Assembly (NCBI GenBank): GCA_049299915.1
Contig: JBAQYG010000029.1
Coordinates: 194-64,193, forward strand
DNA length: 64,000 nucleotides
Source of the DNA: Minisyncoccia bacterium
GTDB taxonomy: Bacteria; Patescibacteriota; Minisyncoccia; UBA6257; JAVHQB01
Reading direction: 5' to 3'
Notes under the pieces: generated by a model
What the model was told of the DNA's origin: nothing
Database searches by the model: none
Seen by the model: the letters and a program-made list of their open reading frames with translations, nothing else
Position numbers and translations under genes: made by a program
In this document: one piece after another, positions 13,568 to 30,763 of the stretch
How positions within the stretch are numbered: position 1 is the first letter of the stretch
Layout of the letters: the number at the start of each line of letters is the position of its first letter

Positions 13568-14215
13568 ATGCAGTTAGAGCTTTTACATAAAGAATACGAC
13601 TCATTACAGGCTTTATATGGTGACCCTTCACTAAAGTCTATTTATGGTGCAGGCTGCACTAAGAATCCCAAAATAATGTTAGTGTTTATGAATCCAACTG
13701 CTACAAACGTGTCAGCTAAAAAGAATTGGCAGGGATTAAGAGCTCCTTGGTTGGGAACTAAAAATATATGGAATATTTTCTATGAATTAAAATTATTATC
13801 CAAAGATTCATTTGATAGGATACAACATATGAGGCCCGAAGAATGGACTGCTGGTTTTGCCGATAGAGTGTATTCTGAATTAACTGATAAAGGAATATTC
13901 GTTACAAATCTAGCTAAATGTACTCAAGTAGATGCCAGACCATTAAAAAATGATATATTTAAAAATTATTTAGATTTAATACTTAAAGAAATTGATTCTA
14001 TTAATCCTAAAAATATAGTTAGTTTTGGCAATCAAGTTAGTTCAATTTTATTAGGAAAACCAATTTCTGTGGGTGATTATGTTGGTACTCAAAATGAGAT
14101 ATTGAAAATTGGCAAAAAACGATTTAAAGTTTATCCAACCTATTATCCAGTAGGGCAGGGAAGACGTAATATGCCATTAGCAGTAGGAAGAATAGAAAAG
14201 ATTTTGAAATATTAA
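13568..14215 (+). CDS. Uracil-DNA glycosylase-superfamily protein (SMUG/family-4-like).
   Basis: MLVFMNPTATN resembles the UDG-superfamily motif A (GMNPG-like), and the size fits. The C-terminal motif is not clearly recognisable. Confidence 0.4.
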   Translation: MQLELLHKEYDSLQALYGDPSLKSIYGAGCTKNPKIMLVFMNPTATNVSAKKNWQGLRAPWLGTKNIWNIFYELKLLSKDSFDRIQHMRPEEWTAGFADRVYSELTDKGIFVTNLAKCTQVDARPLKNDIFKNYLDLILKEIDSINPKNIVSFGNQVSSILLGKPISVGDYVGTQNEILKIGKKRFKVYPTYYPVGQGRRNMPLAVGRIEKILKY

Positions 14216-14261: not shown

Positions 14262-14963
14262 ATGAATAAATATATTTACTTAATTGGAAATCTAATATTT
14301 TTTATCATTTGGCTAGCCATTATTGTTACCAGAAAGGATCTGAGGTTTAAAATGGTAAAAACGAGCCTTATGGGTGGTGCCATGGGTATATTGTCAGAGT
14401 TCTGGTACTTTAAAGATTATTGGCGACCACCATCAATTTTAGGACAAGGAGTTACCTCTATTGAAGATTTTTTGTTCGGTTTCTTTATCACAGGAATCGC
14501 TGTTTCCATATATGACATAGTTTTTGGTTTTAAGAACATTTCAGGCGAGAAACCTCACAAATTATTATTCGGTTTATTATTTATCCTAGTAATGAGTTCT
14601 TTATTATTTTTAAGTACTTGGAAAGGAGTCAATTCAATTTTAGTAAGTGAAATAGCATTCTTACTTTGTACAGTAATAATAGTTCTAATAAGGAAAGACC
14701 TACTTAAACCCGCTCTAATATCGGGACTATTGCTGGTATTAGTTATTCTTCCGATTTATGTGCTGCTTTTCAACATTCTTTCTCCTAATTTCTGGCGCCT
14801 ATATTGGCTATTGAATCAAACTAAATTCGGTATTTTAGTTTTTGGCGACATTCCTTTAACCGAATTATTTTGGTACTTTTATTGGGGTTGTTTTTGTGGA
14901 GCAGGTCATAATTTTTATTCAGGTACTAAAAAAGTTCCTTTAATTAAGATTTCTGGGCAATAA
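14262..14963 (+). CDS. Polytopic membrane protein, possibly lycopene-cyclase-domain-like.
   Basis: About seven hydrophobic helices, and a PxxE-type motif (IPLTELFWYF) repeated weakly. The assignment is speculative. Confidence 0.45.
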   Translation: MNKYIYLIGNLIFFIIWLAIIVTRKDLRFKMVKTSLMGGAMGILSEFWYFKDYWRPPSILGQGVTSIEDFLFGFFITGIAVSIYDIVFGFKNISGEKPHKLLFGLLFILVMSSLLFLSTWKGVNSILVSEIAFLLCTVIIVLIRKDLLKPALISGLLLVLVILPIYVLLFNILSPNFWRLYWLLNQTKFGILVFGDIPLTELFWYFYWGCFCGAGHNFYSGTKKVPLIKISGQ

Positions 14964-15077
14964 GATTTCTAGTTCTTTCTACCATAAATTCCTAGCTAAT
15001 CCATATGATTATAAAAGAAATCTGAGTATAATTATAAGTAAGGTGGAGAATATTAGGTAAATTATTGTATAAATATA

Positions 15078-15701
15078 ATGATTTATAGAATTCAAAAAAT
15101 CAGTCGTTCAAAAATAGATAAAATGTATACGAAATCAATGAAAGAGTTAAATTCTTTTTTTCCAATCAATTGGACCCATAATCTCCCGAATCTAATTTTA
15201 GTTCCAGACAGAGAGACCATTAATGCTTTAAAAGGGCATAAAACAGAAGATTGGGTTGTTGGGTGGGCTGACCGCAATAAAGTGTACTTATTAGATGGTA
15301 AGAACTTTAATAAAGAAAGTAGCCATCAATATTCTGATGAGGAATTCTTTGTGTCTATAAAACATGAACTTGCACACTGTTTTTCTTATGTATTAGCCGA
15401 TTTCAGTAGAATACCTATTTGGCTTCTTGAAGGAATCGCTATATATGTTTCTGGTGAATATAAACAGCAAACGAAGCCTAAAAAATTTAAAAACTTTATT
15501 AATTATTTTGATAAAAGTGGGGAAGGAGTCTATTCAGAATCTGGTTTTGCGGTTATGTTTTTGATAGAGAAATATGGGAAAAAGAAACTTTTATCTTTAT
15601 TGAAATCGTTAAAAAAAGTTAAATCAAAAGCAGATTTTGCTAAATTGTTTAAATCTATTTATGGTTTCGAATTGTCCTATAAAAATTTTAGAGTAATTTG
15701 A
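15078..15701 (+). CDS. Putative zinc metallopeptidase-like protein (HExxH).
   Basis: An HELAH motif followed by a downstream Glu (LLEGIA), as in zincins. Confidence 0.4.
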   Translation: MIYRIQKISRSKIDKMYTKSMKELNSFFPINWTHNLPNLILVPDRETINALKGHKTEDWVVGWADRNKVYLLDGKNFNKESSHQYSDEEFFVSIKHELAHCFSYVLADFSRIPIWLLEGIAIYVSGEYKQQTKPKKFKNFINYFDKSGEGVYSESGFAVMFLIEKYGKKKLLSLLKSLKKVKSKADFAKLFKSIYGFELSYKNFRVI

Positions 15702-15846
15702 TTTTTTACCCTTCCTTTATTATCACCCATCTCCAGTAAGCTCTTATGGATGTAAAAAGAACCTAGCTATAATTTCCAAGAAGATAAGTAAAATTAAACA
15801 GATTATTAAATAAGTAAATTAACATCAATTAATAATAAATAATATT

Positions 15847-16020
15847 ATGACTATGTATTATGCAGGTCTAATGTATGTTGCAATAGCTATAGTTATATTT
15901 TTAGTTTGCCGAGTCCTGGTTCTATGGTATTGGAAGATTGATACAATAGTGTCATTGCTCCAAGATATCTCAGGCAATTTGTCTAATATAGTGCAAAAGA
16001 CAGAGCAAAAACAAGCCTAG
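15847..16020 (+). CDS. Small single-TM protein (57 aa); not in the ORF track because it is under 60 aa.
   Basis: ATG-initiated ORF MTMYYAGLMYVAIAIVIFLVCRVLVLWYW... lying in the AT-rich gap upstream of the RloC-like gene. Confidence 0.25.
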   Translation: MTMYYAGLMYVAIAIVIFLVCRVLVLWYWKIDTIVSLLQDISGNLSNIVQKTEQKQA

Positions 16021-16306
16021 TTGAATTTGAAATATTAGTATTTTGTCAGTGTTTTTATTTGCCCAAACCCTTGAGAGGGGTTATAATATAGGTGTTAAAA
16101 ATCTATAATTTTGTGGAATACAACATGCATCCTAGTGGTAATAATGAGGGTTGTTCCACTTATACTATGAGTCTGTTTTCAGAGCGTTATATTGAATTGG
16201 CCTAAATGGTCAATTTTTTTAATGCAATAATATATATAATTGACGGATTATAGTCATTATAATGAATTTAATAAATCGGTTAGAAAAATCGTAAAAAAAT
16301 AATCTT

Positions 16307-18604
16307 GTGGATAAATGGATACGATTACTGGAAATATTAAAAAACAAAATAATGAAAGTAATGATAAAAAAAATTGTAAAAATTAAAAATTATAGTGTAT
16401 TCCAAGATTTCTCTTGGAACTTGTTATTGCCTGATTTTAAAAAGGTTAATATTATTTATGGTTTTAACGGATCTGGCAAAAGCACTCTATCAGAGCTGTT
16501 TAGATTCTTAGAAATAAAAAATAAAGATTTTTTAAACACGGGAGTTGAGTTTGATATTGAAATTGACGGTGGCAATCACATAAAAAATACTGGTACTAAT
16601 TTGTTTACAAAAGATTATCAAATAAAGGTTTTTAATCAGAGTTTCGTAGGGGAAAACATTGATTTTATCCAAGGAAAAACTAAAAAAATTACCCTTTTTT
16701 TAGGAAAAGAAAATCAAGAATTACGAAATCAACTAGAAGATAAAACTAACAGAATTGATATCTTGGGTAAGGAAATAGAGGATAATCTCAATGAACAACA
16801 AGAAAAAGAAAAATCAATTGAAAAATCTTTTACGGAAATAGCTAAAACTATATCTGCCATAGAAACTGGTAATGCTAGAAGAAATTATAGGTCTCCAGAA
16901 GCTAAGCTATCTTTTAATTTATTGCAAAATAAACAAGAAATCGATGAGGCAGAATTAGAACAAAATAAAAAAATTTTAACTGCAGAAAAGAGAGAAAACA
17001 TTCCTGAATTATCTGCAAAAAAATATAAGATAGAAATCGAAACCATAAAAATAAATATAGATAGAATATTAAAAACAAAAATATTAATAAGTATTATAAA
17101 GAGATTAAAAGATAATTTTGACATCTCTCAATGGGTAGAATCCGGTCTGGCTATTCATAAAGATCATAATAGCCGAGTTTGCGAATATTGTCTTCAAAAA
17201 ATTCCAAATAAAAGGCAAAAGGAATTGGAAGAATATTTTAACGATGCAAATAAAAAATTGAAAACAGAAATTGATAGTCAAATAAAACTGATAGATGATT
17301 TATATTCAAATATAGAAAGCATTATTATACCAGACGAAAATAAATTTTATCCAGACAAAAAACAATCAATGATAACTTATAAGTCTATATTCATTAAAAA
17401 AAGAAATAATATATTATTGTTATTGGATGAATTCAAGTCTAGATTAGAAGAGAAGAAGGGTAGGCAATTTGAAAAATTGGTTTATAATCCGACTATAAAT
17501 AATGGGAACCAATTTGATGATGTATTAGATAGCATAGAAGCTTTAATCAAATCTCATAATGTTTTTAATGATAATTTGGAAAAAAATATAGATGAAGCTA
17601 GGAAAAAAATAGAAACACATTATTTATCTACCATATTTGATGAAGTGAAAAATTTTGAAGTAAATATCAAAGAATTAGAAGCAAAAGTTATAAAAGATAA
17701 GAAAAATAAAGATACAATTAGAGAAGAGGCGGACACTATTAGGGGCAAGATATCTAATGTGCACGCCTCTTGCGATGAATTAAATAGAAAAATACATCAA
17801 TTTTTAGGTAGAGATGAAATAAATTTAGAAGTTACAGCAGACCAACAGGGGTTTACCATTAAAAGGAAACTTAAGAATGCAACTAATTTAAGTGAAGGAG
17901 AAAAAACAGCTATTGCGTTTGTTTATTTTTTAGAATCTTTATCTGATAATGGATTAAATGCTAAAGACGAAATTATTGTGATAGATGACCCAGTATCAAG
18001 TTTTGATTCGAATTCATTGTTTCAAGCATTTGCTTTTATGAAAGAACTTATAGAAGACCCAAATCAAATTTTTATAATGACACATAATTTCCAATTTTTA
18101 AGATTAGTTTTAAATTGGCAAAAAGGAAATAATCGAGGAAAAGACTGCTCTAGTTATATGATAAATAACTATATGAATACCACTAATATTAGATGTGCAA
18201 GAATAGAAAAATTGGATAAATTATTAGAGTCGCATGAAACTGAGTACCATTATTTATTTAAATTATTGTATGAATTTAACACTGAGGCCGATGAAAAGAA
18301 AAATGATTTGGCCAGAGTTTATAATTTGCCTAATATTGCAAGAAAAGTATTAGAAACATATTTAATGTTCAGGGTACCAAGCAATCAAGGTACTTATGAT
18401 AAATTATATTCTTCCTATATTAAATTCGATAGAATTAAAAAGGCAGCGATTTATAAGTTTTCAAACGATCAATCGCACATAACTGGTGATGATTTTAGTC
18501 CTTCCCTTATACAAGAAACTAAAAATAATATCCGAGATTTATTGGATATGATACAACAAAATTCACAAGAGCATTATGAGATTATTGTTAGCTCGTTAGT
18601 ATAG
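16307..18604 (+). CDS. RloC/PrrC-like anticodon nuclease candidate (AAA_13 ABC-type ATPase).
   Basis: Three features support this:
- ABC ATPase motifs: Walker A GFNGSGKST, signature LSEGEKTAIAFVYFL, Walker B IIVIDDPVSSFD and H-loop MTHN.
- A CxxC zinc hook (CEYC) within the long central coiled-coil, as in RloC.
- A C-terminal nuclease-like motif NIARKVLETYLMFRVP followed by a conserved His (SHITGDD). Confidence 0.65.
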   Translation: MDKWIRLLEILKNKIMKVMIKKIVKIKNYSVFQDFSWNLLLPDFKKVNIIYGFNGSGKSTLSELFRFLEIKNKDFLNTGVEFDIEIDGGNHIKNTGTNLFTKDYQIKVFNQSFVGENIDFIQGKTKKITLFLGKENQELRNQLEDKTNRIDILGKEIEDNLNEQQEKEKSIEKSFTEIAKTISAIETGNARRNYRSPEAKLSFNLLQNKQEIDEAELEQNKKILTAEKRENIPELSAKKYKIEIETIKINIDRILKTKILISIIKRLKDNFDISQWVESGLAIHKDHNSRVCEYCLQKIPNKRQKELEEYFNDANKKLKTEIDSQIKLIDDLYSNIESIIIPDENKFYPDKKQSMITYKSIFIKKRNNILLLLDEFKSRLEEKKGRQFEKLVYNPTINNGNQFDDVLDSIEALIKSHNVFNDNLEKNIDEARKKIETHYLSTIFDEVKNFEVNIKELEAKVIKDKKNKDTIREEADTIRGKISNVHASCDELNRKIHQFLGRDEINLEVTADQQGFTIKRKLKNATNLSEGEKTAIAFVYFLESLSDNGLNAKDEIIVIDDPVSSFDSNSLFQAFAFMKELIEDPNQIFIMTHNFQFLRLVLNWQKGNNRGKDCSSYMINNYMNTTNIRCARIEKLDKLLESHETEYHYLFKLLYEFNTEADEKKNDLARVYNLPNIARKVLETYLMFRVPSNQGTYDKLYSSYIKFDRIKKAAIYKFSNDQSHITGDDFSPSLIQETKNNIRDLLDMIQQNSQEHYEIIVSSLV

Positions 18605-18772
18605 AGACATAAGTAGACAGAATTGCTTTTCTATAGAATTTGAACTTCGATGATTTCAAGAAAACATTAAAAAATCTTTCAAATTGATTGTTTTTATTGT
18701 TTCCTAATATATTATTTATTTATGCGTATCTTAAAAATTAATCCCTAATTGTTTTTGTGATACAATAGAGAC

Positions 18773-19162
18773 ATGACTTATATAGGAATACTACCGAACA
18801 TGATTTTATGGTGGTACTCTCAGGGGCTTAAGGAATGCCTCGATTTTTGTTTCGCTATTTTAGTGTTTTTAAAGAATACTTTTTCTGTTTCACTGAATCT
18901 CAAAACTTTATTTGCTCCTTGGAGAAGAACGACTAAACCATTAGAATCCAACTTAGTTGGTTTAAAGAATTTTGTTTTTGATCAAATTGTAGCTAGGGGA
19001 TTAGGGTTTCTTATTAGAACAGTCTCTTTAATCGCGTACCTTTTAATAACAGTTATTACTCTGCCAGTTCTTCTGCTAGCTATGGTGATTTGGATAACTC
19101 TACCTGTAATAGGCGTGACTTTTTTAATAGCGTGGGTTAAACATCTCTTAGAATGGATTTAA
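18773..19162 (+). CDS. Small integral membrane protein (129 aa).
   Basis: About four TM helices. Its stop overlaps the start of the downstream Clp-like gene by 10 nt. Confidence 0.5.
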   Translation: MTYIGILPNMILWWYSQGLKECLDFCFAILVFLKNTFSVSLNLKTLFAPWRRTTKPLESNLVGLKNFVFDQIVARGLGFLIRTVSLIAYLLITVITLPVLLLAMVIWITLPVIGVTFLIAWVKHLLEWI

Positions 19163-21618
19163 AAATTATAGATTTCAGACAAAACAGGTCATATATAAAG
19201 GCTGCTAGAGCAACCAGGTGGTTACTACAGCCTTGGTTTCGTTTCCTTTCGTATCTTTTAGTGATATTGGGATTTATTCTATTTTTAAATCTTTACCAAA
19301 ACGAAGATGCCGATCTTATCGCTGGCCCCATTGCTCTCTCCATTTTCTTTTTCATGCTTTTAAAATTCAGTGGCAGTTATTTTAGAAAATTGGAATTAAG
19401 AAATGTTTGCCAGAAATCTCTAGGGAACAATGTTTCTATTTTTGAGTGTACCGATTTTGAAGCTGCTTTAATTTTAGGGGAAGTAAATTTTAATAGCCCT
19501 GATTTAAAAAAGTTATTCAAAAGACTTTTAAATACAACTAAAGTTAATTTTATTGCTACCAAGCTTAATATTAATCAAAAAGATTTAATTGCTTTAGTAG
19601 ACAATATATTATTTTCTGATCCTGCCAAGGGTTTAAATTTAATTCTTAATTCAGCCTTAACCGAAGTACAAAATAGCGGAGAAGAATACCTATCTCCTGC
19701 CCATTTGTTCTATGGTTTTATAACCAACTTACCAAATAGAGAGCTCTTTTTAGCTAAATTAGAATTAAGCCTAGAAGATATAGCTAATCTTTGTTTTTGG
19801 AGCAATATTAATTTTGATAAAAGAAGAAAACTGCCTACTATAATAGAACGACTCAAAATATCCCAAGGTGGGCTCGGTAAGAACTGGGCTTTTGGTTATA
19901 CGCCCTATATGGAAAAGTATGGGGAAGAGATTACTGATAGTCGTCGCTTTCAATCTGTTTCTATGGAGGGGCGAGAAGATATCTTAGATAAAGTAAGTAT
20001 TATTTTGAGTCGAGATAGTAAAAATAGTTGCTTGATAGTAGGTCCTATTGGTGGAGGAAAAAGCAGCTTGGTCACTGCTCTAGCTGAAAAGATTTATTAC
20101 GGCAAAACTTATAAAGAAATAGCCTATAAAAGAGTGATTAGTTTGAATCTCGATAAAATTATTGCTAATACACTTGAAGAAACAAAAGAAGTACTTGTTA
20201 AGATTTTCACAGAGGCTTCAAGAGCCGGCAATATTATTCTTTTAATAGAGGACATAGAAAGAATCTTTAACAGTAATGGTCAGAATAACGAAGATGCTAT
20301 TGCTCAAGTTTTCTCATCATTCTTTAACAATTCAGATTTTAGAATAGTGGGTACGACTACGGGGAATAATTATCAAACCTACATTGCACCAAGGCCAATG
20401 TTAGCGGCGAGTTTAGAAGTTGTGCCTATGCCTCCAGCTAATTTTAGAGAAACCATTAGAGTGATGGAAGATCTGGCCCCTCATTTTGAAGGAAAATATA
20501 AAATAGCGATAACCTATGGAGCCATTGTTCAAATATACAAAGTAGCGGATAAATTTATCAGCATAAAGGATTTTCCTGGCAAAGCTTTAACTCTTATGGA
20601 TAGCATTTGTTTTGCTACCCACAATCGAGGAGAAAAAATTCTTAACAAAGACCTAGCCAATCAATTGTCCGAAGCCATTCTAAATATCCCTATTAATTCT
20701 TTTAATGCCAGCGAGAAAGAAAAACTATTACACTTAGAAGAAATTATTCATACTAGAGTAATTGGCCAAGAAGAGGCTATTAATGCTGTGGCCAATGCCT
20801 TGAGGCGAGCTCGGACTCAAATTAAAGATAGTAATAAACCCTTGGGTAGCTTTCTTTTCTTGGGCCCAACCGGTGTAGGCAAAACGGAATCTGCCAAAGC
20901 ACTAGCTTGGAGTTATTTTGGTAGTGAATCTAATATGGTACGTCTTGATATGAGCGAATACCAAACTCGTGAATCAGCTAATCGTTTATTAGGGTATAAA
21001 AATATCAATAGTAACGAATTAGTTGAAGGGAATTTCGTAAAAGCAATTAGGCAAACACCCTTCTGTGTAGTTTTATTAGATGAAATAGAAAAAGCTCACT
21101 CAGATATTTTAAATCTGTTTTTACAAGTTTTAGATGAAGGCTATTTAACGGATGGATTAGGAAATAAAGTAAACTTTAGTCAGACAATTATTATAGGGAC
21201 ATCTAACGCTGGTGCTAATCTGATTCGAGAGGAAGTAATTAAAGAAATGGCCATGGAGAAATTATCAAATGACTTATTGAATTATTTACAAAAGGAAAAT
21301 ATCTACAGGCCAGAATTTCTTAATCGTTTCGATGGCATTATAGTATTTAAACCATTAACCCAAGACCAAATACTGAAGATTGCAGATTTAATGTTTAAGA
21401 AAATTCAATCCCAAATGAAACTTAAGGGTTATATTATCTATTTAGGTGAAGGAGTAATCCAAAAATTAGCTGAATTAGGCTATCAACCAGAATTGGGGGC
21501 TAGACCTATGAATAGAGTCTTTCAAGATAAAGTAGAGAGCTTATTGGCTTTAAAGATTTTAAATGGTAGTCTTTTAAAAGGCGTTCCTTTAACCATTAAT
21601 TTGAAAGAGATCATCTAG
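19153..21618 (+). CDS. Membrane-anchored ClpB/ClpC-like double-AAA+ ATPase.
   Basis: The domain order is:
- Two N-terminal TM helices, then Clp_N-like repeats.
- A degenerate D1 AAA module (LIVGPIGGGKSSLVTALAEKI).
- A canonical D2 module (FLFLGPTGVGKTESAKALA, LDMSEYQTRES, VVLLDEIEKAHSDILNLFLQVLDEGYLTDGLGNKVNFSQTIIIGTSN). Confidence 0.7.
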   Translation: MDLKIIDFRQNRSYIKAARATRWLLQPWFRFLSYLLVILGFILFLNLYQNEDADLIAGPIALSIFFFMLLKFSGSYFRKLELRNVCQKSLGNNVSIFECTDFEAALILGEVNFNSPDLKKLFKRLLNTTKVNFIATKLNINQKDLIALVDNILFSDPAKGLNLILNSALTEVQNSGEEYLSPAHLFYGFITNLPNRELFLAKLELSLEDIANLCFWSNINFDKRRKLPTIIERLKISQGGLGKNWAFGYTPYMEKYGEEITDSRRFQSVSMEGREDILDKVSIILSRDSKNSCLIVGPIGGGKSSLVTALAEKIYYGKTYKEIAYKRVISLNLDKIIANTLEETKEVLVKIFTEASRAGNIILLIEDIERIFNSNGQNNEDAIAQVFSSFFNNSDFRIVGTTTGNNYQTYIAPRPMLAASLEVVPMPPANFRETIRVMEDLAPHFEGKYKIAITYGAIVQIYKVADKFISIKDFPGKALTLMDSICFATHNRGEKILNKDLANQLSEAILNIPINSFNASEKEKLLHLEEIIHTRVIGQEEAINAVANALRRARTQIKDSNKPLGSFLFLGPTGVGKTESAKALAWSYFGSESNMVRLDMSEYQTRESANRLLGYKNINSNELVEGNFVKAIRQTPFCVVLLDEIEKAHSDILNLFLQVLDEGYLTDGLGNKVNFSQTIIIGTSNAGANLIREEVIKEMAMEKLSNDLLNYLQKENIYRPEFLNRFDGIIVFKPLTQDQILKIADLMFKKIQSQMKLKGYIIYLGEGVIQKLAELGYQPELGARPMNRVFQDKVESLLALKILNGSLLKGVPLTINLKEII

Positions 21619-21620
21619 AT

Positions 21621-21815
21621 ATGATTACAGAAAAAATTGTTGACGGAAATACTACCATCCAATACAGCGTTAATCCTCTTAATCGCTGTCGAAAATCTTT
21701 TGGTATTGTTTTAAAAACCTTAATTAAAGCTGGACTTTTTGTTCTAGTAGTTTTTATTTATTTAGGAGTTATTTTTTTGTTAAGCTCTAAATTCAAACTT
21801 TTTAATTTACGCTAA
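21621..21815 (+). CDS. Small C-terminally anchored membrane protein (64 aa).
   Basis: It is wedged between the Clp-like and Pif1-like genes with only 2-nt and 4-nt gaps. The C-terminal 30 aa are hydrophobic. Confidence 0.35.
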   Translation: MITEKIVDGNTTIQYSVNPLNRCRKSFGIVLKTLIKAGLFVLVVFIYLGVIFLLSSKFKLFNLR

Positions 21816-21819
21816 AGCC

Positions 21820-23139
21820 ATGACCCAAGAAGAAGCTTTAGCTGTTTTAAAGTGTGGCTACAATGTTTTTATTACAGGAGCAGCTGGTTCTGGCAAAACC
21901 TATCTTTTAAGAGAGTACATAGAATATTTAAGAAAACATGGGATTGGAGTCGGAGTGACTGCTTCAACAGGCATTGCCGCTACTCATCTTGATGGTACCA
22001 CCATTCATTCCTGGTCTGGTTTAGGCATGAAAGATATTTTAGATGAAGACGATCTTAGAAAACTCAGTCGAAAACCTTATTTAAAAGAACGATTCAAAAA
22101 AACCAGTGTTTTAATTATCGACGAGATTTCTATGCTTTCTCAGGAGCAATTCGAGAGTCTGGATTTAATCTGCCAAAAGCTAAAGAAAAATGAAAGAAAT
22201 TTCGGTGGAATGCAGATAATTCTTTGCGGAGATTTTTTTCAATTGCCACCGGTAGGCAAAGAAGATGCTTTTGTCTGCGAATCTGAAGTGTGGCAAAGAA
22301 CTAATTTTAAAGTTTGCTATCTCGAAGAACAATATCGGCACCTGGACAAAAAGTTTGTTACCATTTTAGATTCAGTACGGAATAATCAAGTAATAGGGAA
22401 AACGTTGGAACTTTTAAATAAAACACTAACTAAATCAGAAGATGTCTCTAATAAAATAACTAAACTCTATACTCACAATGCAAACGTAGACGAGATAAAT
22501 AGCCAGGAGCTTAGTGCTATGCCTGGCAGGGGAACAACCTACAAAATGACTGACTATGGTGACGAGCATTTGGTTAAGAATCTAAAAAATAGTTGTTTGG
22601 CTAGCGAAGAATTAGTTCTCAAGAAAGGTGCTCTGGTTATGTTTTTAAAGAATAATTTTGAATTGGGATATGTAAACGGCACCCTAGGAACAATTTCTGA
22701 ATGTGAACCAGGGGAAAACCCTGTTGTTTTGACCAAAGATGGTAGACACATTACCGTTCCTCTAGCCAATTGGGAAATAGAAGATGAACAAGGGAAAAAT
22801 GTTTTAGCCATGGTTCAACAATATCCCTTGCGATTAGCTTGGGCTATTACTGTGCACAAAAGCCAAGGGATGACTCTCGATGAAGCCCTCGTCGATTTGT
22901 CTCATTCCTTTACTCCCGGAATGGGCTATGTAGCCCTTTCCCGTGTTAGAACACTCACTGGTCTTCATCTTTTAGGGTTTAATGATATAGCGCTCAAGGT
23001 TAGTAACAAAGCTATTAAATTAGATAAAATTTTTATAGAGCAGTCCAAAAAAATACAAAAAGAGATTTTTAAAACAGAAGATTATAAAACAAGGCAAAAA
23101 GAATATCTAGATTGGCTGCAAACTTTTAGTAATGCTTGA
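21820..23139 (+). CDS. Pif1/RecD-family 5'-3' DNA helicase.
   Basis: Walker A GAAGSGKTY, Walker B LIIDEISML, and the C-terminal VHKSQGMTLD and YVALSRV motifs typical of the Pif1 / AAA_30 / UvrD_C_2 architecture. Confidence 0.75.
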   Translation: MTQEEALAVLKCGYNVFITGAAGSGKTYLLREYIEYLRKHGIGVGVTASTGIAATHLDGTTIHSWSGLGMKDILDEDDLRKLSRKPYLKERFKKTSVLIIDEISMLSQEQFESLDLICQKLKKNERNFGGMQIILCGDFFQLPPVGKEDAFVCESEVWQRTNFKVCYLEEQYRHLDKKFVTILDSVRNNQVIGKTLELLNKTLTKSEDVSNKITKLYTHNANVDEINSQELSAMPGRGTTYKMTDYGDEHLVKNLKNSCLASEELVLKKGALVMFLKNNFELGYVNGTLGTISECEPGENPVVLTKDGRHITVPLANWEIEDEQGKNVLAMVQQYPLRLAWAITVHKSQGMTLDEALVDLSHSFTPGMGYVALSRVRTLTGLHLLGFNDIALKVSNKAIKLDKIFIEQSKKIQKEIFKTEDYKTRQKEYLDWLQTFSNA

Positions 23140-23263
23140 AAAAAATAATTAAAGTGCTATCATCTCCAAGCTGTTCTTTACAAAGCTATTAGGCAATTAA
23201 GTGAGTATCACTTGTTGACCCTTACTTAATTGCTTAGCCAAAAAATAGACAAGGAGGTGTAGA

Positions 23264-23935
23264 ATGAGAATCAATAGTGACGAACTGATTGATTGTATTT
23301 ATGAACTTCTTTCTCCAGACGAGAAGAGGATTGTTGTTTGGCAAAAACTGGGAGAGAAACATTGCCGAGTTACTTTCTTTGATAAAGAAGCTCTTGATCA
23401 AAAGAAAGAAAAAGAGCAAGAGAGAAAAAGAGACATGCTGTTCAGCATTGTTTGTAAAGCCGACAATGACTTAGTCATTGTTCACTGCAATACAGATCAC
23501 CAATTAGCACTCAGTATTTGTTTAGCCCTTTTAAAAAAGGGTTTAGATGTACGTTGTTTTGGACATGATGATCAAGGGGTGACAAAGAGAATTATCTTTG
23601 ACACTACTGTTTGCGATTTTTGTGAGTTTGTAAACAACTTACAGAATATTGCAAACGAACTTAACTTAGCCCTCAGCTTAAATGATAATCCTTTAGGAAA
23701 TTATAACGAGGGTTATCTTCTAGTTCGTATGAAAGAAGCGAATGGACGGGCTAAGATTATTGGGATTTTAATTAACCCTGGTGGTATCTTCCGAGTGACA
23801 ATACTTGATGGGTCGATTGATTTTTCTTATTTGATTTCAAAAATGAATAAGATAAACAATCGATTAATTATCAGAGAAACGATCTCAACCCACACGGGGA
23901 AAAAAGTGGTAACACGTTACAATTATTGCCACTGA
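23264..23935 (+). CDS. Hypothetical protein; first gene of the compositionally distinct island.
   Basis: A strong SD (caaggaggtg) sits 7 nt upstream of the ATG, and GC is visibly higher than in flanking genes. No known motif. Confidence 0.5.
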   Translation: MRINSDELIDCIYELLSPDEKRIVVWQKLGEKHCRVTFFDKEALDQKKEKEQERKRDMLFSIVCKADNDLVIVHCNTDHQLALSICLALLKKGLDVRCFGHDDQGVTKRIIFDTTVCDFCEFVNNLQNIANELNLALSLNDNPLGNYNEGYLLVRMKEANGRAKIIGILINPGGIFRVTILDGSIDFSYLISKMNKINNRLIIRETISTHTGKKVVTRYNYCH

Positions 23936-24108
23936 AGGCTCATTCCCTAGGCCTCAAATGCACATTAAAGCAGCTATTAAATTTATCGGTAGCTGCTTTT
24001 TCTTTGTCTTGCTATATATGATTTTATATTGTATAAATTAAGTATCTAAGCCAAAGTTTTGGCTGCTAAGTAGCACAGTAACAAGTCCAAAGCAAAGGAG
24101 GTAGGGAA

Positions 24109-25545
24109 ATGAGTGAAGAAGAATTACAGGGCCATGATATTGATTTGAGCCGTTTGGGCCCAACAACAAGTATTCGTCTGCTAGACACCAATGTTCTTCT
24201 GGACGATGCAAACGCAATGGAGACTTTTGATGACAGTTGGGTCTTTGTCGGACTTCATACACTGGCAAGTCTGAATAAAATCATTGATAACAGAAATATC
24301 TATCCAAGGACATTTGTAGACGCTAGTTTCGCTATTCAAGCACTGTCTGCATATGAATCTAAAGGCGACCTCAAAAAGGGCGTACCTATGGGCAAAAGTC
24401 TTTTGTTTGTAAACTATGATGGTGAAGATTGGGATGGATTACCTGAGGAAACAAAGAAAGACAAAAAGGATAATACCTTAATTGGTATTGCCAATGGTTT
24501 GAGAAAAAGGCTGTGCGATAATGGTTTGAAACAAAGTGTGATTATTGTTTCTAATAATATCTACCTGAGGATGCAAGCCAATGCCTGTGGTCTTATTGCT
24601 CAGCCTTATAACCAAAGCATTAGAACCATGGAACAACTCTATTCTGGAATTGTGCGAGTTAACCTCAACAAGGATGAAGAACAAAGCATTCTTCCAGACT
24701 TTCGTAGACCAAATGGAGCCATAAGCATAGACGAACTACAAAAAACCCTTCATGGTAAAAAATTGGTTCCTAACCAATTTGTTTACCTTATGGCGGGATC
24801 CAAAAGACAGGCCATTGGTATCTACAATGAAAATGATAGAAAGCTTTCCTACGTCGATTTCAGTGCCCCAAAGCTTCCTCGTAGTTTGGACAAGCCTCTG
24901 GTAGCTCTTAATCCAGAACAGGCCTGTGCAATATATGCACTGAATGATATACATAAGAAAATAGTTTCAGTTGCAGGAGTTGCTGGAACTGGTAAGACTG
25001 TTACTGCCTATGACGCTGGTCTAAGACAAGTCATTGGCAAATTATATGAAAGACTCGTTATCTTTAAGCCAATCAGGGAGGCAAGTGATGCGGAATTATG
25101 TGCTCTTCCTGGTGGTGTAGACGACAAAATGGCCCCTTGGGTAGCTCCAATTATAGCAACTCTCAAGAGGCTCTCTTCAAAAGGACCTAAGGACAAAAAC
25201 CTGGAGCAACTAATAAAAACAGGGGTGATTCAGATCCGGCCTATCAATTATGCAAGAGGTGATTCTATCGAGAACTCTTTCATAATTGTAGAAGAAGCCC
25301 AAAATCTTACACGTAATGAAATTAAGCTTATTATTACGCGGGTAGGAAATGGGTCTAAGATTGTTCTCATTGGCGATCCAACACAATGTGACAATCCACG
25401 TTTGGACTTTGGTTCAACTGGTCTCACATTGGCCATAGAGAAATTCAAAGGACACAAACTGGGTGATGATGACGGTGTTTGTCATGTTACCTTGATTGAG
25501 TCAGAGAGATCTTCGGTAGCTGCTCTTGCTGCTAAGCTTCTCTAA
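24109..25545 (+). CDS. PIN-PhoH fusion ATPase (PhoH2/YlaK-like).
   Basis: N-terminal PIN domain (IRLLDTNVLLDD ... D residues) and C-terminal PhoH P-loop ATPase (VAGVAGTGKTVTA, IIVEEAQNLT, LIGDPTQCD). A strong SD (aaaggaggtag) precedes it. Confidence 0.8.
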   Translation: MSEEELQGHDIDLSRLGPTTSIRLLDTNVLLDDANAMETFDDSWVFVGLHTLASLNKIIDNRNIYPRTFVDASFAIQALSAYESKGDLKKGVPMGKSLLFVNYDGEDWDGLPEETKKDKKDNTLIGIANGLRKRLCDNGLKQSVIIVSNNIYLRMQANACGLIAQPYNQSIRTMEQLYSGIVRVNLNKDEEQSILPDFRRPNGAISIDELQKTLHGKKLVPNQFVYLMAGSKRQAIGIYNENDRKLSYVDFSAPKLPRSLDKPLVALNPEQACAIYALNDIHKKIVSVAGVAGTGKTVTAYDAGLRQVIGKLYERLVIFKPIREASDAELCALPGGVDDKMAPWVAPIIATLKRLSSKGPKDKNLEQLIKTGVIQIRPINYARGDSIENSFIIVEEAQNLTRNEIKLIITRVGNGSKIVLIGDPTQCDNPRLDFGSTGLTLAIEKFKGHKLGDDDGVCHVTLIESERSSVAALAAKLL

Positions 25546-25575
25546 AGTACTTGTATTTATCACAGGGCCCCATGC

Positions 25576-25601
25576 AACGCATGGGGCTTTTTCATACAAT
25601 A
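25576..25601 (+). terminator. Rho-independent terminator after the PIN-PhoH gene.
   Basis: GC-rich hairpin gccccatgc/gcatggggc with loop aacg, followed by TTTTT. Confidence 0.7.
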
Positions 25602-25738
25602 TTAGTTATTGACGATATTAATTGATTATGTTACGGTATTGATGCACTTATACAATTAAAAAGGAGGTGATTAAAGTACACGGTCTGGAAGTAATATCAA
25701 GGTATTTTTTTTATACAATCCGATATAGGAGGTAAGGA

Positions 25739-26182
25739 ATGCGTGATCATGATAGGCTGGGATCTTTCAAAAGAGGTCTGGATGGACTATGTGAAAAAAA
25801 TGGTTGGCATATTGGCAAGCCTACTACCTTGCAAACGGTATCCAGGGTGGTACAGCTTGATCCTTTAGCCATAAATGACGATGATCAGTTGATCAATTAT
25901 CTCAAGAATCTTTACTCCGGAGCCATGTTGGAGTGGGAAATCTTGTGTTTCCCCGAAAGCTGTAAGGAATTATCCTTTCTAGCCTACTTCAAGCCCGGAT
26001 GTAGTGGAAAAGAGATTGCCATCGTAGAAATGACTTCACAGTTCTACGACTATTATCATGTTAGTCCTCAACAAGCGCAAGATTCTTTCTGGACTACCAT
26101 AGAGAAAGATTCTAAGCTACCCGTCTTTGGAGTAGTCTGGAAATCAGGCAGACGTCCAATCGTTTGCCATTGCGGTGATTAA
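25739..26182 (+). CDS. Hypothetical protein (147 aa) within the island.
   Basis: Strong SD (ataggaggtaagga) and higher GC. No known motif. Confidence 0.5.
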   Translation: MRDHDRLGSFKRGLDGLCEKNGWHIGKPTTLQTVSRVVQLDPLAINDDDQLINYLKNLYSGAMLEWEILCFPESCKELSFLAYFKPGCSGKEIAIVEMTSQFYDYYHVSPQQAQDSFWTTIEKDSKLPVFGVVWKSGRRPIVCHCGD

Positions 26183-26194
26183 GAGGATACATAT

Positions 26195-26602
26195 ATGGAT
26201 AATAGCGTCATCGCCAAACGCTTAGAAACATCAAGTAGGTTTGAAAACACAATGGCAACTCTGGCGAAGCGAGAAGGCTTGTTTCCTATTACTCATATAA
26301 AACAAGGAGATTGTTTGCATCAGGATGCTGCAAGCATGCCTAGTGCCGTTTACCTTGAGACGGTATATGGCCACTTGTTTTATTACAGGGAAACCTTAAC
26401 TTGTTTGAAAGTTGGCGTAATGTTTGGTTTTGGTAAAGTTCGAGATCGTTTCATGGTAGAGGTTGCCTCTCATTACGAGGGTATCTTCCGTGAAAAGTTC
26501 TTACCAACAATCAGAGCCAAATACTCAAGAAAGCAAATCCTGGTTTTTTCTAACCAGGGATCGATACTCTATCGTAGTCCTTCATTTAAGGCCCCGGGAT
26601 AA
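26195..26602 (+). CDS. Hypothetical protein (135 aa) within the island.
   Basis: SD aagagga present and higher GC. It is followed directly by a terminator hairpin. Confidence 0.5.
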   Translation: MDNSVIAKRLETSSRFENTMATLAKREGLFPITHIKQGDCLHQDAASMPSAVYLETVYGHLFYYRETLTCLKVGVMFGFGKVRDRFMVEVASHYEGIFREKFLPTIRAKYSRKQILVFSNQGSILYRSPSFKAPG

Positions 26603-26620
26603 AACTCGGGGCATTTTTGT
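26592..26620 (+). terminator. Rho-independent terminator closing the island.
   Basis: Hairpin ccccg/cgggg with loop ggataaaact, followed by a T-rich tract. It overlaps the stop codon of the 26195..26602 ORF. Confidence 0.55.
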
Positions 26621-26669
26621 TTGCCAAATAGATGTGAGAGCCTTATACTATAGTAAATTTTTAGTTTAT

Positions 26670-27245
26670 ATGAAGAAAAAGATTTTAATAATTCTAGTTT
26701 CAATCATTTTGATATCTTTGGGAGCCATCGTGGCTTATAATTTTTTTAATAATAAAATAGTTTCTTCTATGCCCCTTTCTCGTCAAGGAAAGATAGAAAC
26801 AAACTATTTTAAATTAGTGTTACCTTCTGGATGGGAGACTCAGGAACCAGCTTCAGAAAATTTTGTTTTAATAGCTTATAGAAAAGAAGACTCTAAAGAT
26901 TCTTTGGCAAGGAAAATAAACTATAAAACCAGTCTCTTTATTGCCAGAGAAGAACTGAATGGTAAAACCATTGTGGATTATGTAGCCCTTTTAAAAGAGG
27001 GTGTCCAACGAAAGAAAGAGAATGTTTTATTTCATTCTGAAAATGAAACTTCTTTCAACGGTCAAAAAGCCTATCTAATCGATGTAGAGTTAAAAGAAAA
27101 TGATATAGAATTTAAAAGTATCTTTGGTGTGATAGAGGGAAAAAATCAAGAAGTTTGGGTAATAAGTTTTAATACTCCCAAATTAGATTGGATTACAACG
27201 GCACCTCAGTTCTATAGTATTCTAAATAGCTTCTCAATTAATTAA
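26670..27245 (+). CDS. Membrane-anchored or secreted hypothetical protein (191 aa from the ATG at 26670; the ORF track extends it artificially to 26463).
   Basis: Starts MKKKILIILVSIILISLGAIVAYNFF (signal/anchor). The upstream track extension overlaps the previous gene and its terminator. Confidence 0.45.
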   Translation: MKKKILIILVSIILISLGAIVAYNFFNNKIVSSMPLSRQGKIETNYFKLVLPSGWETQEPASENFVLIAYRKEDSKDSLARKINYKTSLFIAREELNGKTIVDYVALLKEGVQRKKENVLFHSENETSFNGQKAYLIDVELKENDIEFKSIFGVIEGKNQEVWVISFNTPKLDWITTAPQFYSILNSFSIN

Positions 27246-27259
27246 TATTTAATAGTAAA

Positions 27260-27496
27260 ATGCTTCCAAATTTTTTAATGCAAAAAATGGTAGAGACTCA
27301 ATTGAAATCTTTACCCGAAGGTCAACGTGGGAAAATGATAAATCTTATACACAATAATCCAGATTTTTTTAAAGAAATGGCCGAAGACTTACAAAAAGAA
27401 TTAGCTAGTGGGAAAGATAATATGGCGGCAGCAATGATGGTCGCTCGTAAGAACGAAGCGAGGTTAAAAGAGCTACTTGAAAAGAATCCAGATTAA
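27260..27496 (+). CDS. Small hypothetical protein (78 aa).
   Basis: Open frame only, coil-like and charged. No motif. Confidence 0.3.
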   Translation: MLPNFLMQKMVETQLKSLPEGQRGKMINLIHNNPDFFKEMAEDLQKELASGKDNMAAAMMVARKNEARLKELLEKNPD

Positions 27497-27529
27497 GACT
27501 AAAGTGATATTAATAATAAATTATAAACT

Positions 27530-27733
27530 ATGAACAATTATTTAGCGCTTCTCAATAATCCCTACATTTTAGTGCCCTTGCTCCTTTGGTCATTGGTTTG
27601 GAAAGGACTAGCCCTTTGGCGTGCTGCTCGTCTTAATCAAAAAATTTGGTACGTTTGTATTTTGCCTATCAATACAATGGGTATTTTAGAGATTCTTTAT
27701 TTATATATTTTTAGTAGGCCCAAGAATCGTTAA
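27530..27733 (+). CDS. Small membrane protein (67 aa).
   Basis: Two hydrophobic helices. Confidence 0.3.
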   Translation: MNNYLALLNNPYILVPLLLWSLVWKGLALWRAARLNQKIWYVCILPINTMGILEILYLYIFSRPKNR

Positions 27734-27735
27734 AG

Positions 27736-28179
27736 ATGAAACTGCTTTTCAAAGAATCCTATCTTGCCTTTATCAAGAATAGTTGTAATACCCATTCTTT
27801 TAGAAATTTTTACGCTGAAATAGACGGCAAGACTATAGACATAGTTAAGGGCGGCAAAACAAGTTGTGCTTTTTTTGTTTCGTCCGTTCTTTTGACTTTT
27901 GGACTAATCAAAGCAAACCATTTAACGGTAGATGGTCTCCTAAAAGATATGAAAAAATCTGGTTGGTATTTAATAGACAAACCTTTACCAGGGGCAGTTC
28001 TTTTATGGGAAGAAAAAATCGGTCATGAACATACTGGTTTTTTCATAATAGATAAAAAGGCTATTAGCAATAACACGATAAAAAATTGTCCCATAATGCA
28101 TTCATTCAATTATTTAGGTAAAAGAAAAATCAAAGCTATTTATTGGCATAAACGACTAGAAAAGAATGTTTTTAATTAA
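27736..28179 (+). CDS. Hypothetical protein with an ordered Cys then His pattern (possible papain-like / NlpC-P60-like hydrolase).
   Basis: KGGKTSCAFFVSS followed by GHEHTGFF. The fold assignment is weak. Confidence 0.35.
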   Translation: MKLLFKESYLAFIKNSCNTHSFRNFYAEIDGKTIDIVKGGKTSCAFFVSSVLLTFGLIKANHLTVDGLLKDMKKSGWYLIDKPLPGAVLLWEEKIGHEHTGFFIIDKKAISNNTIKNCPIMHSFNYLGKRKIKAIYWHKRLEKNVFN

Positions 28180-28200
28180 AATACTTTTCTTATTTATTTT

Positions 28201-28839
28201 ATGATAAGAGTTCCATTCTTTAATAAAACCTTAACACGTATCTGTTATCATCTAGTCCTTTCGGACATTTTGTTTTTAGGTGCCTGGGGTATTACTAGCC
28301 CCATTATGGCTCTTTTTATAACCAGTAAAGTTTTTCAAGCTACTCCCATTACTATTGGTATTTGTACTTTTACTTATTTTTTAACCCAATCAATATTCCA
28401 AATCCCCATAGCTAATTTTTTAGACAATAAAGAAGGGGAACATGATGAATTTTACTGTCTTTTTGGAGGGGTAGTCCTTTCAGGCCTAACAGCTATTTGC
28501 TACACAGCGGTTAAAGATCCTATCGCCTTATATCTAGCAGCTTGTATGCAAGGCTTGGGTATGGCTATGTATGCACCAGCTTGGTCTTCGATCTTCTCTC
28601 ACCATTTAAATCCCAAAAAAGTAGCCGTGGCTTATGCTATAGATAATACTGCCCAAGGAGTTTCTACAGCAGTTTTCGGCCTATTAGGTGGAATAGTCTA
28701 TAAATATTATGGAGGGAATATCTTATTTATTACTATTGCCATCCTATCAATACCGGCAGCCTTTGCTATTTTACTGGCTCCCGGAATGTTGATTCCCAAA
28801 CCAGTAAAACCATCTTTTTTCTTTAAAAAATTACCGTAG
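28201..28839 (+). CDS. Six-TM membrane protein resembling half of an MFS transporter.
   Basis: About six hydrophobic helices in 212 aa. Possibly a truncated or split transporter. Confidence 0.35.
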   Translation: MIRVPFFNKTLTRICYHLVLSDILFLGAWGITSPIMALFITSKVFQATPITIGICTFTYFLTQSIFQIPIANFLDNKEGEHDEFYCLFGGVVLSGLTAICYTAVKDPIALYLAACMQGLGMAMYAPAWSSIFSHHLNPKKVAVAYAIDNTAQGVSTAVFGLLGGIVYKYYGGNILFITIAILSIPAAFAILLAPGMLIPKPVKPSFFFKKLP

Positions 28840-28930
28840 CTAATACTATTTACTAGACATTCATAGCCTTTACTTTAGGCTACTTTTAGTTCATAATAGA
28901 CAATTGTTATATCCCTCTCAGAACCCATTT

Positions 28931-30757: not shown

Positions 30758-30763
30758 GATTTT

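Follow-up and report, generated by a model that had tools for sequence, protein, structure and literature searches.

Four genes packed head to tail in a member of the Candidate Phyla Radiation (CPR; Patescibacteria) raise the question of which of them work together. They lie in a 64,000-nucleotide stretch of contig JBAQYG010000029.1 from a Minisyncoccia bacterium (assembly GCA_049299915.1, positions 194 to 64,193, forward strand), which we refer to as the window, and encode a small membrane protein (g1), a Clp-like ATPase (g2), a second small membrane protein (g3) and a Pif1-like helicase (g4). An initial annotation, made from the sequence alone, had taken them for a four-gene operon and a dedicated module, with defence, DNA uptake or processing, or membrane-protein extraction as possible roles. 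We consider it probable that g1 and g2 form a CPR-wide two-gene membrane AAA+ module that is probably non-threading, and that g3 and the Pif1 gene are lineage-specific neighbours.

The g2 product is a class-I Clp/Hsp100 protein at superfamily level, with tandem D1 and D2 AAA+ modules followed by a ClpB_D2-small domain. Pfam matches to AAA (residues 294-403; 79 bits), AAA_lid_9 (33 bits), AAA_2 (residues 562-727; 161 bits) and ClpB_D2-small (60 bits) all exceeded their cut-offs. With the AlphaFold2 model of g2 as query, Foldseek returned ClpC and ClpB hexamer subunits as top structural matches (E 1e-49 to 1e-39), and the TM-scores against ClpB and ClpC, normalised to the target, were 0.73-0.79 over the AAA core. 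The top NCBIfam models were ClpB, ClpA, ClpK/G and ClpV, each at about one third of its cut-off (ClpB TIGR03346, 421 bits versus 1232; ClpA TIGR02639, 376 versus 993; ClpV/TssH TIGR03345, 306 versus 885). These scores speak against a housekeeping ClpB, ClpC or ClpA, and with its degenerate D1 and intact D2 site (below) g2 is as unusual as the initial annotation had judged. No type VI secretion system genes were found in any neighbourhood of the family loci, and on this and its ClpV score g2 is not assigned to ClpV/TssH.

Membrane segments were called from Kyte-Doolittle hydropathy peaks of at least 1.6 together with AlphaFold2 helices. In g2, hydropathy peaks at residues 24-47 and 55-73 (2.13 and 1.99), and the model (predicted local distance difference test score, pLDDT, 78.5) has helices at residues 27-49 and 57-82, in agreement with the two N-terminal membrane helices proposed initially. 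This hydrophobic hairpin is predicted to be a membrane anchor. A hydrophobic segment was present in the first 200 residues of all 97 full-length family representatives. The Clp_N-like repeats that the initial annotation had read downstream of the hairpin were undetected by Pfam Clp_N in g2 at E <=0.01, whereas a profile-profile comparison points to them: hhalign aligned the family N-domain with canonical Clp_N at 97.5% probability (E 8e-12) over residues ~114-215, which correspond to about one and a half repeats. In the model this divergent domain has eight helices. The family-specific motif GGLGKNWAFGYTP lies just 5' of D1, and its region is conserved as giG..wayG.t..L in 99 family sequences, with G240 and G242 invariant in the full-length alignment (A4).

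We read the residue states of both AAA+ modules from alignment to E. coli ClpB and to relatives; the search with alignment A4 also returned many canonical ClpB and ClpC loci, which were used as controls. D1 of g2 retains a Walker A motif (GPIGGGKS), has an inverted Walker B (ED, not DE), carries AS in place of the RR arginine fingers, and has lost the pore-loop tyrosine, with ANTL--EETKE in place of AGAKYRGEFEE. Of 99 family sequences, 50 carry the D1 Walker A lysine and about 10 the Ser/Thr that follows it. D2 of g2 has intact Walker A and B motifs, sensor-1 asparagine, arginine finger and GAR sensor-2, and none of K577, T578, D643, E644, N685, R725 and R784 varies among the 99 family sequences. 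The degenerate D1 and intact D2 noted at the outset were thus confirmed at the level of individual residues.

What had been missed is that neither ring has a pore-loop tyrosine. The D2 pore loop of g2 reads GYKNINSNELVEG in place of GAPPGYVGYEEGG, so that GYVG gives way to NINSNELVE. In the family this loop has a median of 9 residues, mostly polar or acidic, and any aromatic residue occurs in 24 of 99 sequences. The D1 signature KYRGE was kept in none of the 97 representatives and the D2 signature G[YFW][VIL]G in one, and neither pore loop has a conserved position, aromatic or aliphatic, among the 99 sequences. The M-domain and the ClpP-docking IGF/VGF loop, both of which the initial annotation had singled out to be looked for, are absent from the family. 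The M-domain columns are wholly gapped in all members, g2 included, and no [ILVM]G[FL] occurs between D2 sensor-1 and the arginine finger in any of 91 members; that segment has 32 residues, as in ClpB, versus 36-47 with LGF or VGF in ClpC-type controls. Taken together, the alignments suggest purifying selection on one ATPase site combined with loss of the threading apparatus. We read g2 as a probable ClpB/ClpC paralogue that has an anchor and has shed the M-domain, the ClpP loop, the aromatic pore residues of both rings and the larger part of the catalytic residues of D1. We also considered that g2 might be a pseudogene or a decaying ClpB, and rejected this because the D2 catalytic residues are invariant in 99 diverse sequences.

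The conserved companion of g2, which had likewise escaped notice, is the 129-residue g1, fused to the ATPase in some lineages. In its product an N-terminal helix is followed by an invariant F-S...P-W-R-R loop, then by an R..GF..R motif and finally by one or more hydrophobic C-terminal helices; hydropathy peaks at residues ~72-126, in the C-terminal 55 residues, and the AlphaFold2 model has a pLDDT of 92. Eleven residues are invariant (W13, Y15, F37, S38, P49, R52, R75, G78, R82, W107 and P111). The protein matched nothing in Pfam, NCBIfam or PADLOC. A profile search found at least 596 clusters, all unnamed or hypothetical, and the few organism labels among them are Patescibacteria.

We assembled 26 family loci, 25 of which had assessable upstream sequence (21 found via the ATPase and four via g1). 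At all 25, a g1 homologue was located directly upstream on the same strand (gap -97 to +10 nt) or was fused in frame. In the search that started from g1, a Clp-like gene adjoined it on four of four long contigs. Fusions of g1 to the Clp-like gene occurred in 11 of 149 representatives, and two of these, at the loci we number L020 and L026, were verified in the DNA. Some fusions retain the ATPase hairpin; in others the hydrophobic helices of g1 stand in for it. From the fusions one would expect the C-terminus of g1 to be close to the N-terminus of g2. Genes for subunits that bind each other are classically recognised in genomes by fusion together with strict adjacency. By this signature, g1 appears to be an obligate small integral-membrane partner of g2, and we think it probable that the conserved unit consists of g1 and g2 only, an uncharacterised pair found across the CPR.

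The g2 family was delimited with a profile of the N-terminal 300 residues (anchor and N-domain) in an exhaustive search of 1.84 billion representatives. It comprises 884 clusters at 50% identity (E <=0.001), or 411 at E <=1e-10, mostly of 800-850 residues. All named members of this N-terminal family are CPR, and the top matches in the GTDB species set were Parcubacteria, Saccharibacteria, Magasanikbacteria, Moranbacteria and 'Patescibacteria group'. The homologue of g2 with 81% identity comes from a Candidatus Parcubacteria metagenome-assembled genome. The g1-g2 pair is present in every CPR lineage sampled. In the source databases the proteins are labelled 'AAA family ATPase' or, automatically, 'ClpC', and a full-text literature search turned up no description of the g1-g2 family.

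Seven loci (L014, L018, L020, L022, L029, L032 and L059) come from GTDB records titled 'uncultured Gammaproteobacteria', a label that looks doubtful. All seven encode a membrane-anchored Clp-like ATPase without KYRGE and, L020 excepted, without GYVG. A g1 homologue, upstream or fused, was detected at L020, L022, L032 and L059, and the gene order of L014, L022, L032 and L059 is common to the Magasanikbacteria loci L011 and L013.

At two loci a canonical ClpB is encoded divergently beside the g1-Clp pair (L022, 4016-6703, minus strand; L059, 4381-7020, minus strand). In both of these ClpBs, Clp_N and the two Walker motifs are found together with a KFRG pore loop; the one in L059 has GYIG as well. 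The Saccharibacterium Southlakia encodes separate ClpC and ClpP. The canonical ClpB next door and the Southlakia ClpC and ClpP indicate that the g1-g2 pair, as a paralogue, has a separate role and does not serve as the general disaggregase of the cell.

Neither g3 nor the Pif1 gene shares the distribution of the pair. The g3 product has a hydropathy peak of 2.74 at residues 37-55 and no PADLOC match; homologues of g3 were confined to close relatives (L001, L002, L091 and L092), and in each of these the Clp-like gene and Pif1 flank it. A role of g3 as conserved partner of the Clp-like gene or of Pif1 was rejected on account of this restriction to close relatives. As the initial annotation had stated, g4 is a Pif1-family helicase, and we found nothing unusual in it. 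PIF1 (PF05970, 139 bits, cut-off 25.9) and Pif1_2B_dom (PF21530, 33 bits, cut-off 23.9) scored above their cut-offs, the motifs GAAGSGKT (Walker A) and DEISM are present, and scores against the RecD2 and RecD equivalogs were far under theirs.

Searching from the Clp side, we found Pif1 at 3 of the 26 family loci, all with at least 76% identity to the window, and none within 8 kb at the other 23. Pif1 and the Clp-like gene were neighbours only at loci with at least 83% identity in Pif1 or at least 76% in Clp. On the 545-kb metagenome contig L091 the block is kept from g1 to Pif1, and the Pif1 protein is 99% identical to g4. Outside the window and its close relatives, in which synteny extends to UvrB, the pair is found without g3, Pif1 and the 223-residue gene that follows. 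Searching from the Pif1 side yielded about 20 orthologues at 47-56% identity without g1, Clp or g3 nearby. Eight of these (L098, L099, L102, L103, L105, L106, L113 and L116) have a PD-(D/E)XK nuclease directly upstream, of ~283 residues and with a PF12705 match and a weak Cas4 match, next to a Pif1 about 50% identical to g4. This helicase-nuclease pairing may be the usual partnership of this Pif1, which most likely acts separately, in DNA maintenance, and which fits the surrounding nucleic-acid maintenance genes better than it fits the Clp-like pair. By their distribution, g3 and g4 appear to be neighbours specific to this lineage, Pif1 a recent one, and not part of the conserved module.

The four open reading frames (ORFs), their coordinates and their packing within 10 nt were as first described: the frames of g1 and g2 share 10 nt, whereas g2 is separated from g3 by 2 nt and g3 from g4 by 4 nt. 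Upstream of g1, an extended -10-like box (TGaTACAAT) is kept in four related genomes, L091, L002 and L092 among them, and the DNA 5' of the box diverges. The box is the probable promoter of the transcription unit, with a leaderless or near-leaderless g1 mRNA; its conservation next to diverging DNA fits a promoter serving g1 onward, independent of the candidate defence gene inserted upstream. A consensus promoter scan was not above shuffled background (25 promoter-like sites versus 20 expected), and neither was a consensus terminator scan (6 terminator-like sites versus 3.3). The inverted repeat 3' of g4 is a possible 3' boundary of the unit; it is not followed by a T-run, and the terminator scan made no call there. 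As judged from this arrangement, g1 to g4 are probably one transcription unit in this genus. The idea of a four-gene operon thus stands as far as the packing is tight enough for co-transcription, and falls where it implied a conserved unit larger than g1 and g2. The features are listed in Table 1.

Table 1. Position of the four genes, the parts of g2 and other features within the window
Feature	Position (nt)	Strand	Description	Basis
Low-GC block	14262-18604		variable island upstream of g1
AAA_13/PDC-S06 gene	16307-18604		765 aa, directly upstream of the four-gene block	Pfam, PADLOC
-10-like box	18758..18766	+	extended, TGaTACAAT, 6 nt 5' of the g1 start codon; probable promoter	read from sequence
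g1	18773..19162	+	129-aa small membrane protein	ORF list
g2	19153..21618	+	821-aa membrane-anchored class-I Clp/Hsp100-like AAA+ ATPase	Pfam, NCBIfam, alignment, AlphaFold2, Foldseek
g2 hairpin	19222..19371	+	residues 24-73, two-helix hydrophobic hairpin, predicted membrane anchor	hydropathy, AlphaFold2
g2 Clp_N-like domain	19450..19818	+	residues 100-222, divergent, eight helices	AlphaFold2
g2 family motif	19867..19905	+	residues 239-251, GGLGKNWAFGYTP
g2 D1 module	19906..20652	+	degenerate	residue alignments
g2 D2 module and D2-small	20710..21582	+	ATPase site intact, pore loop non-canonical	residue alignments
g3	21621..21815	+	64-aa single-pass membrane protein (predicted), lineage-specific	hydropathy, homologue distribution
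g4	21820..23139	+	439-aa Pif1-family superfamily 1B (SF1B) helicase	Pfam
Inverted repeat	23190..23236	+	21 nt, arms 81% complementary, 5-nt loop; 3' of g4, before the 223-aa ORF; possible 3' boundary
223-aa ORF	23264-23935		directly 3' of Pif1
PIN-PhoH gene	24109-25545		PhoH2-like, next after the 223-aa ORF
UvrB	28904-30757
UvrA	30764-33283

The window is chromosomal DNA of a CPR (Parcubacteria) bacterium and encodes, besides nine tRNAs, RNase J, RNase Y, UvrA, UvrB, LigA and the ATPase of a type IV pilus. Nucleic-acid maintenance genes cluster near the four-gene block (13568-14215 and 21820-33283), with a uracil-DNA glycosylase (UDG) gene upstream and Pif1, PIN-PhoH, UvrB and UvrA downstream. 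The 223-residue ORF follows Pif1 directly in all close relatives (L001, L002, L091-L093 and L120) and had no match in Pfam, NCBIfam or PADLOC. The low-GC block upstream of g1 contains genes for a lycopene-cyclase-like protein (233 aa), a peptidase-MA-like protein (207 aa) and the AAA_13 protein.

Could all four genes nevertheless be one dedicated module, with the membrane-bound Clp-like ATPase and Pif1 cooperating, perhaps to take up or process DNA at the membrane? The gaps and overlaps of at most 10 nt leave no promoter room at any of the three junctions, and the order g1-g2-g3-Pif1 is kept in five relatives (whole in L001, L002, L091 and L092, in part in L093). However, these relatives are 76-99% identical and syntenic downstream to UvrB, so that conservation of the block reflects recent common descent. 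Beyond them the genes part company, with no Pif1 near the other 23 family loci and about 20 Pif1 orthologues lacking g1, Clp and g3, eight of them beside a nuclease instead. Independent occurrence of the Clp-like and Pif1 genes counts, by the reasoning of the initial annotation itself, against the link between them, and we regard a dedicated Clp-Pif1 module as quite improbable. Even less of the evidence speaks for an anti-phage defence system, a thought prompted by the gene directly upstream of g1, which the initial annotation called RloC-like and which scores 441 bits for AAA_13 and 712 bits for PADLOC PDC-S06. D2 of g2 also gives a partial match to DolB, the ClpB-like protein of Dodola (113 bits, residues 488-686), and Pif1 matches generic superfamily 1 (SF1) helicase models of defence systems. 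Yet in PADLOC-DB 2.0 g1 and g3 matched nothing, the g2 matches covered only part of D2, within the generic AAA module, and g4 matched only generic SF1 models, so that none of the four is placed in a known system. Identity with Dodola was rejected, the DolB match being partial and confined to the AAA module, with no DolA. The PDC-S06 gene itself belongs to a block of low GC content (0.27-0.30 versus ~0.34 elsewhere) that the 81%-identical relative L002 lacks, g1 coming right after UDG there; it is thus a separate insertion, in a variable island apart from the four-gene block. In every lineage examined the neighbours of the g1-g2 pair are housekeeping genes and not variable islands, and with 884 clusters and a probable ATPase counterpart flagged 'core family' (PMC10633639 Table S1) the pair behaves like widely conserved core genes. 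A defence role is hardly credible on these grounds.

A more serious competitor is a conventional threading unfoldase tethered to the membrane, an analogue of Msp1 or of FtsH without its protease, that would extract or disaggregate membrane proteins by way of its central pore. The ClpB/ClpC-like fold, with its TM-scores over the AAA core, the invariant D2 ATPase site, and the combination of a membrane anchor with a Clp_N-like domain, the site of substrate or adaptor binding in other Clp proteins, would all suit such an enzyme. The aromatic grip on a substrate is what the family lacks: none of the 97 representatives has the D1 KYRGEF loop and 96 of them lack the D2 G[YFW][VIL]G, the shortened, mostly polar or acidic D2 loop offers no conserved aromatic or aliphatic position, and there is neither an M-domain for coupling to DnaK nor a ClpP loop. 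We therefore consider a conventional threading unfoldase unlikely. Of the roles first suggested, membrane-protein extraction becomes less probable, in so far as it would proceed by threading, since neither pore-loop tyrosine is kept.

Under the reading we prefer, a two-gene membrane module of g1 and g2, the g2 product would assemble into a hexamer that its anchors, along with g1, tie to the cytoplasmic side of the membrane. The D1 ring would serve chiefly for assembly or nucleotide binding, and D2 would be the motor hydrolysing ATP. A channel without tyrosine grip makes remodelling rather than threading probable, and the work done would be the remodelling of a membrane-embedded client, or of the ATPase's own partner, and not polypeptide threading. 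Lack of the M-domain would mean no coupling to DnaK, and lack of the ClpP loop no proteolysis.

Two sets of observations hint at the client, which may be envelope-related. Nine of the 26 family loci lie in or beside the division and cell wall (dcw) cluster (mraZ, rsmH, mraY), in three arrangements: mraZ-rsmH-ftsL?-g1-Clp-mraY, g1-Clp-mraZ-rsmH-...-PBP (penicillin-binding protein) and g1-Clp-mraY. In Southlakia epibionticum, SEML1_0701 encodes a hypothetical protein of 127 aa, a helical hairpin by structure prediction, and overlaps SEML1_0700 (PMC10633639, Tables S1, S2). The latter encodes an AAA family ATPase with AAA_2, D2-small, AAA and lid at matching positions and no Clp_N match, and the two genes are divergent from murT/gatD (PMC10633639). 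In transposon sequencing (Tn-seq) both genes were scored non-essential at T0 and again at T1, but 'growth defect' at T2 (NE, NE, GD; PMC10633639, Tables S1, S2); SEML1_0700 dropped from 4124 reads to 1638, and SEML1_0701 from 258 to 51 (PMC10633639). SEML1_0700, the probable ATPase counterpart, is the gene flagged 'core family'. A homology search seeded with a Saccharibacteria family member gave no match labelled Southlakia or Nanosynbacter, and the link to SEML1_0700/0701 thus stays architectural. The dcw and Southlakia hints point weakly to envelope or division biology. We tentatively raise a fuller version, while holding it to be rather doubtful: the pair could be an undescribed CPR membrane AAA+ machine without threading, in which D2 would drive the remodelling of a membrane-embedded envelope or division client together with g1, a bacterial counterpart, by analogy, of a Torsin plus its cofactor.

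Several points weigh against our interpretation. The AlphaFold2 models are of monomers only, and we infer both the g1-g2 complex and the hexamer. The membrane segments are predicted, from hydropathy and modelled helices. Absence of threading is probable from the missing conserved aromatic pore residues, and another kind of grip is possible. The tight spacing of g2, g3 and g4 makes a lineage-specific functional link with Pif1 possible. The dcw link is weak, as it concerns about one third of the loci, which are not phylogenetically independent, and the window locus is without it. Finally, SEML1_0701/0700 is a probable orthologous pair of g1/g2 on the basis of architecture and gene order, not sequence, and insertions in SEML1_0701 may have produced their Tn-seq phenotype through polarity on SEML1_0700.

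The pair is of interest beyond this locus. Clp/Hsp100 proteins are textbook threading machines, and a large conserved branch of Hsp100 that keeps the motor and loses the grip in both rings would extend the known range of the fold. The CPR make up a large share of bacterial diversity, and most conserved CPR genes are without known function. Southlakia epibionticum is a genetically manipulable Saccharibacterium with a probable counterpart pair, and the late Tn-seq defect published for both genes makes the function addressable by experiment. For annotation, the labels ClpC and ClpB, which JGI (Joint Genome Institute) pipelines assign now, are unsuitable for the g2 family, and adjacency to Pif1 should not be taken as functional coupling.

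How does this locus compare with known systems? The helicase is the simplest case, as g4 resembles the SF1B helicases of the Pif1 family in domains (PIF1 and Pif1_2B_dom above cut-offs) and motifs (GAAGSGKT and DEISM), and the usual mate of related CPR Pif1 genes is a PD-(D/E)XK nuclease, not a Clp-like gene. ClpB, ClpC and ClpA share with g2 the order of D1, D2 and D2-small, preceded in g2 by a domain that is Clp_N-like in profile comparison, the intact D2 site, and the best sequence and structure matches. In contrast to all three, g2 has an N-terminal two-helix anchor and an obligate small membrane partner gene, lacks both pore-loop tyrosines, has a catalytically degenerate D1, and reaches only about one third of the NCBIfam cut-offs; it lacks the M-domain of ClpB and ClpC and the IGF/VGF ClpP loop of ClpA and ClpC. 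FtsH and Msp1 likewise have an N-terminal membrane anchor that holds a hexameric AAA+ ring at the membrane, as we infer for g2. However, they have a single AAA ring, aromatic pore loops and substrate threading, and FtsH has a protease domain, none of which is found in g2.

Torsins with their cofactors LAP1 and LULL1 offer a different kind of likeness. As generally known (on Torsins see PMC5425593 and PMC4999309), they are membrane AAA+ proteins related to Clp D2, without aromatic pore residues and with a small membrane-spanning partner; they have a single AAA ring, reside in the lumen of the endoplasmic reticulum and receive an arginine finger from the cofactor. Unlike a Torsin, g2 has two rings, a predicted position on the cytoplasmic side and an intrinsic D2 arginine finger (R725, invariant), and no homology was detected between g1 and LAP1. 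The mode of g2 may nonetheless be closer to that of a Torsin with its membrane cofactors than to that of ClpB, as an analogy of working principle only and not of membership. What is known in this locus is the Clp/Hsp100 kind; what is new is an uncharacterised variant of it, widespread and mechanistically odd.

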